The notes beneath the pieces are model-generated. The model made no database searches, had not been told where the DNA came from, and saw only the letters and a list, made by a program, of their open reading frames with translations. Below are positions 54,225 through 58,935 of a stretch of 64,000 bases of DNA, piece after piece. Position numbers and translations under genes: made by a program. How positions within the stretch are numbered: the stretch's first letter is position 1; each line of letters starts with the position of its first letter. The stretch comes from a plasmid. The stretch lies in the sequence record NZ_CP012903.1, one strand, 5' to 3'.

Positions 54225-55993
54225 TCACTTTTGTTGCCATTCCTTTACAACAGCTCCCCAATCGACAGTTCTCTCGACCAATTTCCCATCAGCATACTTT
54301 CTTGTCCAAACATCCCAGAAGTCAGGGTCATCAGAATGGGGTTGCTGATCTTTCGTCAAATTTTTCATTTTAACCAGGACAGGAAGCTCAGATGCCCAGC
54401 CCATCAGTATTGCATGTTGGGATGGCAGTGAAGGCAACTCACGGAGTAATCCTCGCAAATTATCAGGTACCATTTTATGAACTTGCTCCTGATCTTTGTC
54501 ATTACTAATTCGATGCAGAAGAAAAGTATTACATTGAGATAAAACTGTAGGTGATAATTCTGATGGTCGTTGCGAGGAAACCACCATCCCAAGACCAAAT
54601 TTTCTGCCTTCTCGTGCAATTTTCTCAAACACTTGGCAGCAAACAGCTGCGACATCCTGATTTTCAGAGTCATCACGATACCGTTTAATAAATGTATGTG
54701 CTTCTTCAGCTACAAGTACCGTAGGTAAAGATTTATTATATAGTCTTCTATAGCGTTGCAATGATTCAAAAATAATCCTTGAAATCACAGCAGTAACAAT
54801 GTGAGTAATTTCGCTTGGAACTAGAGATAGATCTATTATAGAAATACAACTGTTATCATCTCTTGAACAATCGGTACCAAGATATTTCTCTAACCATTTA
54901 GCTAAGTCAATCCGATTATCAGCATCATTAGTAACAGATCTCATCCTTGTATCTGAGAGCATGGTGCGTATTCTGGCAACCAAATATTCAACATATTGTT
55001 CACTGCCATTTTCTTGAGCAAGAGCTTCTAAATAGGCAACCAGGTTATTACCATCAAATGGTAACGGTATATCTTCATTCTTTGGTAGTAACTCTTTCTC
55101 AAACCCTCCGAACTCTCTAAATGCAGAGGTAACACTCTCGATAATGCTATCTATTTCAGGCACGGTCGCTTGCATGGTTGCGTACTGTACATTCCTATCT
55201 TGTCTATATTTAGACATTATTGTGATTACATTCGTTAAGTTGTTATTTCCAAGTTTATCTCTGTATCCTTCAAAGCTTTCAATCCATTTACCCATTATCT
55301 CGTTAAAGCCTTTTGCAGGCCCCCAAGCTCCAAAGGGTTTCCCTGAACTTTTATCATGTTTTAAGGTTATGAGAACATTCCCTAGAAAACGTTTTATTTC
55401 TATATTTGAGGTTGTTTCAAGTTCAAAATCTTCGTTTCTCATTGCCCTTAGAGAACGCTTTAGTAAAGGAAGTTGGGCTTTAGGACTCGCTTGCGTAAAT
55501 GATGCCCATTCCGAGCTATTCCAAAACCAAGATGGCACTTGGAGTTGATGCTCATTTTCCCCAGCTTCGACTTTAAAAATTCTGCCTTTAAATTTTGTAG
55601 TTGGTCCCAAAGCACGTACATACTCGCCATTGGGGTCTAATATAATAAATCTGGCGTTTGGTTTTACTTCTGACTCCATTGCAGCTTCGAGTGACCATTG
55701 GATTAATCCTGCGACAGAACAAGACTTACCACTACCAGTATTACCAAGTACTGCTATATGACGACCAAATAATCTATCAGGGTCTACGGCTACATTAGCA
55801 TTGTTAGCAAGTGGACTTTGCCCAATAACTATTCGTCTATTATCACCAGACTCGACAATTGATCTAAGCTGTAAATCTGTTGGTAGTAAAATAGCTGAAC
55901 CAATAGAAGGAAATGATTCAGAGCCGCGTTGAAATTTAAAATAATCAGTACCATCTTTGGAAAAGCGTTTAAGAGTTCCGACTGGATTTAAAC
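54225..55993 (-). pseudogene. herA: herA (HerA/FtsK-like ATPase of a SIR2-HerA defense system), 3' portion after the IS insertion
   Basis: Walker A GNTGSGKS plus helicase-like ATPase core; the native frame resumes at SLNPVGTLKRFSKDG... after removing the IS and one copy of the AAC TSD. Confidence 0.65.
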
Positions 55994-56001
55994 TGAAGTG
56001 G

Positions 56002-56787
56002 TCAACTAATATTGGCCACTCTATTAGACTGTTTGTAAAACAGTCGCTCAGATTCATTTGGGGTCAATCCCCCGTTATACCAGTGGGGTCTGATGCCACT
56101 GTAATAGCCTGTGATATAAGCGATAATTCTACACTCTGCTTCTTTCAAGCTTTCATAACCGATTGAAGGCATCCATTCATGTTTTAAACTTCTAAAAAAT
56201 CGCTCCATTGGACTATTGTCCCAACAGTTACCTCGTCGGCTCAGACTTTGAGTGATTTGATAACGCCATAATCGGTGACGATACTCAAGGCTAGTATAAT
56301 GGCTCCCTTGGTCACTATGAAACATCAGCCCTTTTGGGTGCCCCCGCATTTCCCAAGCCATTTGCAAGGCTTTTAATGTCAACCCTGTGTCGGGGGACGT
56401 TGATAGAGCCCAACCAACGGGTTTCCGGGCAAAAAGGTCTAACACGACAGCCAGATAAGCCCACCGTTTTCCTGTCCAAATATACGTCACATCGCCGCAC
56501 CATACTTGATTGGGCGCTGTGACAGCAAATTGGCGGTCGAGTAAATTTGGGATGTCGATATGTTCTTTACTTCCGCGTTTATACCGATGCTTCACCTGTT
56601 GGCAACTTGTAATCCCAAGTTCTTTCATTAAATTACCTACAAGATAACGGCTCATTTTCACACCATATTGAGTCGCCACTATCGTGGCAATAGTCCTTGC
56701 GCCAGCAGAGCCGCCACTTAAATTCCAGGCATCTTTGACTAAGCTTCGTTTAATCGCTCGTACGCCGTCAGGTAAGGCATTTTTCAT
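56002..56787 (-). CDS. IS3-family OrfB (DDE transposase; upstream part reached by -1 frameshift)
   Basis: ...[47 protein letters not shown]... Confidence 0.8.
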
Positions 56788-56876
56788 TCGATGATGCCAG
56801 TGACGATAGCTGCTGCGATGACGTTCAAAAAGTTGGCAAAGTGTTGTGACGGGGTAATGCGCTCTGAGTTTGTCGA

Positions 56877-57176
56877 TTATCGCGAATCCTTCAGTGAGTC
56901 CGACATTAAGAGCGCCGTAGCCTTTTTTAGGATTTCGTTTTCCATTTCAAGGCGTTGTATCTTTTTTTTCATCTCACGAAGTTCAATCTGTTCTGGCGTA
57001 AGCGGGAGCCCTGTTGGTGTTTTGCCTTGTCGTTCTAATCTCAGTTTTTTAACCCAGCGATTAAGTGCGGCAAGGCTAACGCCCATAGCCTGAGCGGCTT
57101 TCGCCACGGAGTAATGATGGTCAACGACCATTTTAGCAGCTTCGAGTTTAAACTCTGCTGAATATTGCTTAACCAT
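56877..57176 (-). CDS. IS3-family OrfA (HTH)
   Basis: [44 protein letters not shown]... Confidence 0.8.
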
Positions 57177-57249
57177 GTGCTCACCTGTGATGTTATTGAG
57201 GTAAGAATATCACCTCTAGTCAGGTGGCCAAATTAACTATGCCACTTCA

Positions 57250-57547
57250 AACTTATTTTTTTTCGAGGAAATGGTAGGTTTACTAGACCAAAATCTTGAA
57301 TATCTCTTTGTTTAGGATAAGGTGAATGCTCAACTGCAAGCCACTCTATTTGCCCAACTAAGTAACCATTATCACATGAGACTAATACATAGCTGTTTAC
57401 TCTAGGAAAATTTCTAGGTGTGCCTGCATTCAAAGCGACAGCATCAGGTGAATCGATATCTAATAGTGCTCTAATTTCATTGGGTGAAACAAAATCTACA
57501 GTACCTACCCTGAGTTGCTCACCTTGTTCAATGGGAAATGAGTTCAT
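57250..57547 (-). pseudogene. herA: herA 5' portion (first 99 codons, HAS-barrel-like N-terminus)
   Basis: MNSFPIEQGEQLRVGTVDFVSPNEIRALLD...; 4-nt ATGA overlap with the SIR2 stop. Confidence 0.65.
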
Positions 57548-58935
57548 TCGGAATCCCCACTATTATTTGAGGTAGTTGCACGATACAAACCTCTTGACTT
57601 CAATAGCTCCGCCATACGAATTGATGATCTGTCTATCGCGGCTTTAGGAAGATAAAAATCTACTAATTTCTTTATATCTCCAAAGTGATCACCAAGCAAT
57701 AAAGATATTTGAGCTTTTCTTCCACTATCGTTTATAAAACGCATGATTCTACCAAGTGGATCACCGTATGCAATTATTACTATATGCGTTGAGGGTATTG
57801 TCAACATGTCAATAATAACCCGATTTATATGCTCATCGCCAAAACTATAACCATATGTTACCAAGGTGCTATTAGGACGACATGTTGCAGATGCTAAATC
57901 CCTAAATAGCTCAACATAAGGATATTCAGATGTTTCACGGTCTTTAACTGAATTTGGATAAATCATTAATTGTTGATAATTTGCAGTTCCGGTAGTTTCC
58001 ACCTGTAAAAAGGGTTCAACCGAACTGGCTCCAAATGGCAATCCAAAACGCCTTATAGCCCCTTCAGTAGCATACCAGTCCAATGAACCATGTAATTTAG
58101 TAAATCGCGCCACACCTTCCAAATATCTTGGCTCACCCCGAATCCCTGGTGGGTTGTAATGATAATCCACTTCTAACCGAGAAGATCTAAAAATTGGTGC
58201 TATAGTACCGACAAATCTGTCAATTAAACGAAGACCTGCTATTTCAGCGCCCGTTTCAATTATCCTGTCGTAATTTGTCGTAAAAATATGTAATCGATCC
58301 CTAGTTGCTGTTCGACTTGAAAAACTCATCAAAAAACTTACTAAATAATTAAATGTTTCTGTTTTTAAATCGTTGTTTGCATCACGAATTAATTTTTCAC
58401 CATAACTAACTGAGTCTGAAAATAATTTCAGACACCTTGTTAGCTCATTATTTAACTCTACTAACTCACTTTTTAAATTTCGATATGAGGGAGCACCTGG
58501 TGGAGATGGTGGAACCGGTAGGTTTTGTACCGTTAAAATCTCTAGTCCTTTAATCAACTCATTAATTGAACGAATCTGATCTTCAATATTACCCTTTCCC
58601 CTTCCTGAGGCGTCTGCTGTTTTAGCTACATAACTGTCTATTTCAGCCTTACAAACTTTGAGATCTTCAATCCATCCCATACCTTGAGGTTTGGTGCCGG
58701 TCGCTGACTCTTGGATAGCCGAACTAAGGCCGGCGCCAATAAGTATATTTAAGTGTTCAGACTGAAAAAGTGCAGTTAACCAAGGTTCTACTCTTGAACG
58801 CAAAAAGTCAGGAGTGATTTTATCTTCTGGTTTTGCCCATGCGCAGTGTCCAACGACTTTAAATGCACCAACTTCGCTGTGTGGGTCCAACTGAACCGGA
58901 GACTGGTCATCGCCAAGCTTTAAATATTGACTCAA
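57544..58935 (-). CDS. SIR2-like (SIR2_2/DUF4020-type) NADase-domain protein, partner of HerA
   Basis: 463-aa protein; ...SEHLNILIGAGLSSAIQ... resembles the SIR2 Rossmann motif; gene is translationally coupled to herA. Confidence 0.6.
   Translation of the reverse strand: MSQYLKLGDDQSPVQLDPHSEVGAFKVVGHCAWAKPEDKITPDFLRSRVEPWLTALFQSEHLNILIGAGLSSAIQESATGTKPQGMGWIEDLKVCKAEIDSYVAKTADASGRGKGNIEDQIRSINELIKGLEILTVQNLPVPPSPPGAPSYRNLKSELVELNNELTRCLKLFSDSVSYGEKLIRDANNDLKTETFNYLVSFLMSFSSRTATRDRLHIFTTNYDRIIETGAEIAGLRLIDRFVGTIAPIFRSSRLEVDYHYNPPGIRGEPRYLEGVARFTKLHGSLDWYATEGAIRRFGLPFGASSVEPFLQVETTGTANYQQLMIYPNSVKDRETSEYPYVELFRDLASATCRPNSTLVTYGYSFGDEHINRVIIDMLTIPSTHIVIIAYGDPLGRIMRFINDSGRKAQISLLLGDHFGDIKKLVDFYLPKAAIDRSSIRMAELLKSRGLYRATTSNNSGDSE

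Follow-up and report, generated by a model that had tools for sequence, protein, structure and literature searches.

Positions 54225 to 58935 of the stretch of plasmid DNA analysed here (64,000 nucleotides of sequence record NZ_CP012903.1, hereafter called the window) hold two genes, for a SIR2-like and a HerA-like protein, the second of which is interrupted by an insertion sequence (IS). We read this operon, with a probability of roughly 0.9, as a two-gene SIR2-HerA abortive-infection system that is carried as cargo by a transposon of the Tn3 family and whose herA gene is split by ISPrre5, a member of the IS3 family, so that its defence function is most likely null.

The first gene of the operon is intact and encodes a protein of 463 amino acids. 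Its reading frame runs on the minus strand from a TTG start at 58935 to a TGA stop at 57544 and has the same extent as RefSeq entry WP_000085085.1. The Pfam profile SIR2_2 (PF13289) recognises the protein with 32.3 bits at a cut-off of 24.5, and the PADLOC model for SIR2 (PDLC04079) does so with 515 bits. The closest solved structures are SIR2 subunits of SIR2-HerA complexes, i.e., 8j4u_A (E value 8e-22), 8yhx_G (3e-16) and 8w9l_A (1e-8). The NAD-binding GAG motif is present as GAGLS (residues 67-71), followed by TTNYD (219-223), which includes N221, and KLHGS (280-284), which includes H282. The extended motif IFTTNYD and KLHGS are kept in the alignments with the chains from the Protein Data Bank (PDB), and N221 and H282 align with the respective motifs of 8j4u_A and 8yhx_G. 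The catalytic dyad of Sir2 from Staphylococcus aureus consists of N226 and H287 (PMC11514289), and by their position opposite these residues N221 and H282 are the predicted catalytic asparagine and histidine of the 463-residue protein. Its N-terminal 180 residues did not align to the solved SIR2 subunits of SIR2-HerA complexes.

The herA gene follows in the same orientation, and its ATG at 57547 overlaps the SIR2 stop codon as ATGA (57544-57547, minus strand). The same layout of adjacent, overlapping genes is annotated in intact copies of the operon. When nucleotides 55994-57252, i.e., the IS and one copy of its target-site duplication, are excised, a single open reading frame (ORF) of 687 amino acids results, which reads ...PFPRKKIS-LNPVGTLKRFS... 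across the junction. This reconstructed HerA exhibits a Walker A motif (GNTGSGKS, residues 182-189) and a Walker B motif (LVAEEAH, 525-531). It scores 81 bits with the Pfam profile DUF87/HerA (PF01935), above the cut-off, and 814 bits with the PADLOC HerA model PDLC04098, with residues 5-686 falling on positions 4-685 of the 686 in the profile. It also matches five solved defence-type HerA proteins with E values from 6e-48 (8wiv_A) to 3e-26. The gene is split in the window, so the classification as a HerA/DUF87 ATPase applies to the reconstruction and is true of the window in a historical sense only.

The reconstruction has a natural counterpart. With the IS excised, the stretch from 54100 to 59000 is identical at 3642 of 3642 positions to the Escherichia coli plasmid pKL53-L (NZ_CP030920.1), on which herA is annotated as one gene of 2064 nucleotides for an 'ATP-binding protein' (WP_001084040.1) that overlaps the gene for the 'SIR2 family protein' WP_000085085.1 by four nucleotides. 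Because this match holds base for base, the split in herA is the footprint of a real transposition event and not a product of chance. An earlier note on this DNA had proposed that the 463-residue protein is SIR2-like, that its gene is coupled to herA by an ATGA overlap, that removal of the IS together with one duplication copy restores a herA gene of about 687 codons with the features of a HerA ATPase, and that the whole has the architecture of a SIR2-HerA system. All of this is borne out, the last point by PADLOC, Pfam and PDB matches for both proteins. The note also took the operon to have probably been functional before the insertion; an intact identical operon resides on pKL53-L.

The ISPrre5 insertion in herA

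The interrupting element is a single copy of ISPrre5, the only one in the window. The 26-bp terminal inverted repeats (IRs) are imperfect, with 19 of 26 positions matching, and have the form TGAAGTGG...TTGGCCAC (also written TGAAGTGG...GGCCAC); they start with TG as is typical of the IS3 family, and the target duplication has the corresponding length of 3 bp. The earlier note had given the correct length of the repeats, which must not be read as perfect; the 3-bp AAC duplication it described is indeed perfect. Both reading frames of the transposase are intact: orfA (57176 to 56877) encodes 99 amino acids with an HTH_Tnp_1 domain, and the orfB frame, which stops at 56002, contains rve and rve_3 domains. 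A -1 frameshift at the heptamer A AAA AAG at 56928 to 56922 would fuse the two into a DDE (rve) transposase, OrfAB, of 391 amino acids, the length of the 'IS3 family transposase' coding sequence given by RefSeq for plasmid pPrY2001. Another A AAA AAG heptamer lies upstream (56967-56961) and was rejected as the frameshift site, with a product of just 76 amino acids. The NCBIfam model transpos_IS3 (NF033516) yields 263 bits at a cut-off of 160. The assignment of a 1256-bp element to the IS3 family, already made in the earlier note, is thereby confirmed.

Over all 1256 nucleotides the element is identical to positions 35218-36473 of NC_022589.1, the Providencia rettgeri plasmid pPrY2001, where it has been named ISPrre5 (PMC6737455). 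The two copies agree in sequence, in the 3-bp duplication and in the frameshift organisation of orfA and orfB; they differ in their targets, which are herA with AAC in the window and, on pPrY2001, the gene for a MobH-type relaxase (rlx, mobH/traI) with a 3-bp duplication of its own, ATT. On pPrY2001, where it occupies 3001-4256 of the stretch compared, the same IS has therefore inactivated a conjugation gene. Within PLSDB, only Providencia plasmids had full-length copies with an identity of at least 88%. The identical orfA protein occurs in 143 index blocks of public assemblies, and its gene neighbourhood is different in each of the ten places shown. ISPrre5 is thus an intact and active IS typical of Providencia, at home in this genus and its relatives. 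Because copies of high identity are seen only in Providencia plasmids, the plasmid may have passed through a Providencia-type host, and this suggests that the insertion in herA was acquired there.

As the sequence shows, ISPrre5 transposed into herA at the boundary of codons 99 and 100 and duplicated AAC in the process. The statement of the earlier note that the gene is interrupted after codon 99 stands in a refined form: the duplicated triplet straddles the two codons, taking in the third position of codon 99 and positions one and two of codon 100, and the frame then continues into the IS, such that the predicted N-terminal product comprises 104 amino acids, 99 of them from native codons and five more, ending in ...KKISLKWHS*. 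The 3' fragment of 588 codons holds K188, D218, the Walker B motif and the C-terminal part of the protein.

The insertion is recent, as the earlier note had proposed. Three facts support this: the 3642 flanking bases show not one substitution relative to intact alleles, the two AAC copies agree completely, and the IS does not differ at any position from the copy on pPrY2001. The disrupted allele was absent from every collection searched. In PLSDB, 409 records match the query with the IS, and not one of them holds 80% or more of it at a single site; an insertion of the size of ISPrre5 is not present among the 40 matches listed (26 more are unlisted) for the intact operon in complete E. coli genomes. 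Searches of species-representative genomes for the exact junction pattern and then for the IS end gave no match in either case, and exact-protein look-ups found no record of the 104-residue stub or of a hybrid ORF of 610 amino acids at the other IS junction. Such absence would fit with the IS junctions being an artefact of assembly, a repeat-induced chimera that placed ISPrre5 from elsewhere in the genome into herA. We nevertheless regard this as extremely unlikely, given that an exact 3-bp direct duplication abuts complete IRs, that excision regains the wild type to the base, which together are the signature of transposition, and that ISPrre5 makes a 3-bp duplication on pPrY2001 too.

Subtype and expected consequence of the disruption

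In intact homologues, the SIR2 NAD+ hydrolase and the HerA ring ATPase form a large complex, for which protection against phage by NAD+ depletion has been published (PMC11514289, PMC11472057, PMC13434337). By analogy, the intact complex encoded by the operon would stay silent until phage infection and would then deplete NAD+ and damage DNA, with the consequence that growth is arrested and the phage does not multiply. Compared with the structurally characterized complexes from E. coli (Nezha; 8j4u, 8su9), S. aureus (8yhx) and Paenibacillus (8w9l/8wiv), the operon in the window shares the two-protein architecture, the TTNYD and HGS motifs and the HerA ATPase core. However, these systems are distant relatives (E values of 8e-22 to 1e-8 for SIR2 and of 6e-48 to 3e-26 for HerA), and the operon constitutes a separate subtype with PADLOC models of its own, PDLC04079 and PDLC04098.

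Genome mining in E. coli published in 2026 delineated eight Sir2-HerA clusters; besides Nezha, three active types, I to III, were validated and type III was dissected (Zhang et al., Nucleic Acids Res 2026, PMC13434337). Type III is triggered by phage single-stranded DNA-binding protein (SSB; T7 Gp2.5) or by Gp5.9. Its HerA is also a DNA nickase, which is restrained by Sir2, the NADase activity of the system is gated by ATP, and the outcome is abortive infection; the HerA variants described are K188A (ATPase) and D218A (nickase), and both residues are required for ATP gating and defence (PMC13434337). Both residues are in place in the reconstructed HerA, where the Walker A lysine bears number 188 and the aspartate within ILDPNGEY number 218. 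The operon family should be one of the eight E. coli clusters, because it is present in 61 of 5426 complete genomes of this species. We consider it likely that the operon is type III Sir2-HerA or a close allele, an assignment based on matching residue numbers and not on a comparison of sequences. Both are SIR2 and HerA operons found in E. coli with K188 and D218 in place; they differ in that herA of the window is split by ISPrre5, so that a functional system is not expected.

In the operon in its present state, the SIR2 gene is left untouched, HerA is cut to the 104-residue stub, and the 588 C-terminal codons lack a start codon of their own. Without HerA, SIR2 proteins showed little or no NADase activity in the system of S. 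aureus (PMC11514289), in Paenibacillus and E. coli Nezha (PMC11472057) and in type III (PMC13434337). Defence is very probably null in the window operon, because SIR2 without HerA has no or minimal activity in all four systems studied and because K188 and D218 sit in the detached fragment. A plasmid with herA in this condition would bear neither the cost of defence nor the risk of self-activation any longer.

Several points weigh against this reading. The equivalog cut-offs of NCBIfam are missed by a wide margin, with 119.5 bits against 500 for SIR2_antiphage (NF042942) and with 187.7 against 800 and 226.4 against 850 for the two HerA_antiphage models (NF042943/NF042944); the scores are so far under the cut-offs that the subtype must differ from those which these models describe. 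The link to type III is one of residue numbering, and the loss of defence is predicted from the biochemistry of homologues and not of this operon. A scan for promoters and terminators over 53900-59800 returned counts no higher than in shuffled sequence, with no site in the 76-bp spacer between the SIR2 gene and the upstream resolvase gene tnpR. Finally, a GGGGGA run resembling a Shine-Dalgarno sequence stands ahead of an ATG that lies within the end of the IS, and the hybrid ORF of 610 amino acids that opens at this ATG (56057 to 54225, minus strand) reads into codons 100-687 of herA. If transcribed from the IS, this candidate ORF could in principle give rise to an N-terminally truncated HerA.

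It is the last of these points that would allow the system to be something other than dead: the stub together with the IS-initiated fragment, or the fragment by itself, might retain some nicking activity or partially activate SIR2. The 610-residue product would include K188, D218 and the Walker B motif, and HerA alone is able to nick DNA in type III (PMC13434337). On the other hand, the ATG at 56057 lies inside orfB in another frame, the promoter scan did not reveal any outstanding site, and the first 99 residues are severed from the ATPase core. In HerA-family ATPases these residues make up the N-terminal barrel, which helps to assemble the ring and to bind the partner, and split ring ATPases seldom reassemble. 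Residual activity of this kind appears highly unlikely to us, and a null operon remains the preferred interpretation.

Recurrent disruption of the operon

The intact operon is widespread. It matches 206 plasmids in PLSDB, 170 of which contain at least 80% of it in one place and 36 of which do not; the alleles fall into groups with at least 99%, about 92% and about 88% identity, and hosts include Citrobacter, Escherichia, Klebsiella, Enterobacter and Salmonella. Of the 61 complete E. coli genomes with the operon, 55 have it intact. The exact 463-residue SIR2 protein is recorded in 2127 index blocks of public assemblies, and in all ten places shown its gene adjoins tnpR and a gene for HerA (687 amino acids, 690 in one case), with the transposase gene tnpA for 1002 amino acids present in six of the ten. 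The intact alleles on pKL53-L and pPROV046-PER (NZ_CP120542.1) share 100% nucleotide identity with the window outside the IS, along with the same tnpR neighbour and the same IS5 copy downstream. They differ from the window in that herA does not contain ISPrre5, and some intact alleles come with a diverged tnpA module.

The operon has been struck more than once: different plasmids carry several independent IS hits, and the event in the window is among them. On the E. coli plasmid pKFu015_2, herA is split by IS1B, in E. coli CP107722.1 the SIR2 gene is incomplete and ISKpn26 sits where it breaks off, and several Citrobacter plasmids carry truncated copies of the operon. A further case is provided by the IncT plasmid pT-OXA-181 from Citrobacter freundii (NC_020123.1), whose backbone and nested transposons are those of the window, with 99.9-100% identity over about 22 kb. 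There, herA is intact and free of the IS, whereas the SIR2 gene is split by a 3082-bp ISEcp1-blaOXA-181 unit (18456-21537 in the pT-OXA-181 sequence compared) with a 5-bp duplication corresponding to window positions 58350-58354. On pT-OXA-181, the gain of the carbapenemase gene blaOXA-181 thus also knocked out the defence system. If the assignment to type III is true, this plasmid retains the HerA nickase but not the Sir2 that locks it. Taken together, the window and pT-OXA-181 represent two independent knock-outs in one IncT lineage, one of which brought blaOXA-181.

The recurrence raises the possibility that the insertion was adaptive, i.e., that on conjugative plasmids the active system imposes a cost or triggers itself and that knock-outs are selected, an explanation that would change the cause of the disruption and leave its anatomy as described. 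In line with it, different elements have disrupted the operon independently at least four times (ISPrre5, the ISEcp1-blaOXA-181 unit, IS1B and the truncation with ISKpn26), and 36 of 206 matching PLSDB records are without a copy covering at least 80% of the operon. The triggers of type III are phage SSBs and Gp5.9 (PMC13434337). Conjugative elements make SSBs and RecBCD inhibitors as well, which may be one reason for such selection. Most copies are intact, however, both on plasmids and in E. coli genomes, the conservation of the exact SIR2 protein in so many index blocks points to maintenance rather than decay, and some chance hits are to be expected in accessory regions saturated with IS. We rate an adaptive origin as rather unlikely, and the data cannot distinguish between selected and neutral IS hits. 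Still less likely is a specific form of the idea, in which the recurrent hits reflect selection against a defence that is triggered by the SSB and anti-RecBCD proteins of incoming conjugative plasmids. If true, the operon would act against plasmids as well as phages, and its host plasmids would escape by IS knock-out.

The earlier note had seen in the silenced operon a case that bears on how plasmids tune costly defence cargo. The part of this claim that concerns repeated IS hits in the operon is substantiated, and the tuning itself is not. Taken alone, the operon matters little: the system is catalogued, identical in hundreds of plasmids and probably already characterised, and its inactivation by an IS is an ordinary event of the kind that is routine on multidrug-resistance plasmids. 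What the window offers together with the intact allele is a natural 'before and after' pair, the same to the base except for the IS, that is suited to tests of cost and benefit.

Carrier transposons and plasmid backbone

The transposon of the Tn3 family that carries the operon is designated TnA. Its resolvase gene tnpR lies 76 bp upstream of the SIR2 gene in the same orientation, and tnpA is divergent (Table 1). Membership in the Tn3 family is evident from 38-bp terminal IRs of the form GGGG...ACGCTAAG and from the combination of a transposase with a serine resolvase. A 5-bp target duplication does not flank TnA, the bordering pentanucleotides being TACTC and AATTA; because no intact duplication is present at its ends, TnA was probably rearranged after insertion. 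A second Tn3-family transposon, TnB, is nested in TnA, contains IS26 and an IS5 copy (52780-53981), and has its end 90 bp beyond the point where herA stops. The repeat at 54097-54134 was considered as the missing left end of TnA and rejected: it has the orientation of the right end at 62794 and is the right end of TnB, with its partner at 39187. The tnpA gene of TnB is split into two ORFs (44007-45851 and 45811-47034). The IS5 copy has terminal repeats of 19 bp, and its transposase frame is broken into ORFs of 56 and 267 amino acids. The IS5 beside herA is annotated with an 'internal stop' in CP107722.1 and with a normal transposase gene for 326 amino acids in pPROV046-PER.

Table 1 Features of the operon, the inserted element and the carrier transposons in the window.
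Feature	Coordinates	Strand	Remarks
TnA left terminal IR	39069..39106	plus	5 mismatches to right end
TnB, second Tn3-family transposon, 14.9 kb	39187..54134		nested in TnA; AGGGA duplication at 39182-39186 and 54135-54139
herA 3' fragment	54225..55993	minus	codons 100-687; without own start codon; stop at 54225
Target-site duplication, copy 2	55991..55993		AAC
ISPrre5, IS3 family, 1256 bp	55994..57249	minus	IRs at 55994-56019 and 57224-57249
Target-site duplication, copy 1	57250..57252		AAC on plus strand
herA 5' fragment	57250..57547	minus	codons 1-99 and duplicated triplet; frame enters IS to 57233
SIR2 gene, intact	57544..58935	minus	463 aa, TTG start; identical to WP_000085085.1
tnpR, serine resolvase, 193 aa	59012..59593	minus	Resolvase product in identical loci
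tnpA, Tn3-family transposase, 1002 aa	59753..62761	plus	DUF4158 and DDE_Tnp_Tn3 in identical loci
TnA right terminal IR, 38 bp	62757..62794	minus	GGGGTTCAAGGTCCAATGATGTAAAAAACCACGCTAAG

Comparison of TnA with the intact alleles revealed differences outside the operon. Between the IS junction and the 5' part of tnpA (57246-61254, including SIR2 and tnpR), pKL53-L is 90.4% identical to the window overall and 100% identical from the SIR2 gene to 59000; because the SIR2 stretch is identical throughout, the divergence of pKL53-L lies in the tnpR-tnpA part (pKL53-L 11640-13895 for window 59000-61254). The plasmid pPROV046-PER shares the operon and tnpR with the window, and homology ends near 59702, between tnpR and tnpA. 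These patterns suggest an exchange of modules at the resolution site.

The backbone of the window is that of the IncT plasmid pT-OXA-181, with 99.9-100% identity over 36998-62795 apart from three differences. A segment of about 1.6 kb (47766-49400) is present in the window and missing at the corresponding position of pT-OXA-181, with both sides matching at 99.96-100%. The resistance region in positions 1-25000 contains a class 1 integron with dfrA12-aadA2-qacEdelta1-sul1 as well as ISCR1, armA, ISEc29, msr(E)-mph(E), ISKpn21, IS26, mer and merR/IS4321, and this gene content on an IncT backbone agrees with the multidrug-resistance setting named in the earlier note. Over 22 kb, the same region is 100% identical to the IncC plasmid pJEF1-OXA-181 from Klebsiella pneumoniae (NZ_CP099750.1).

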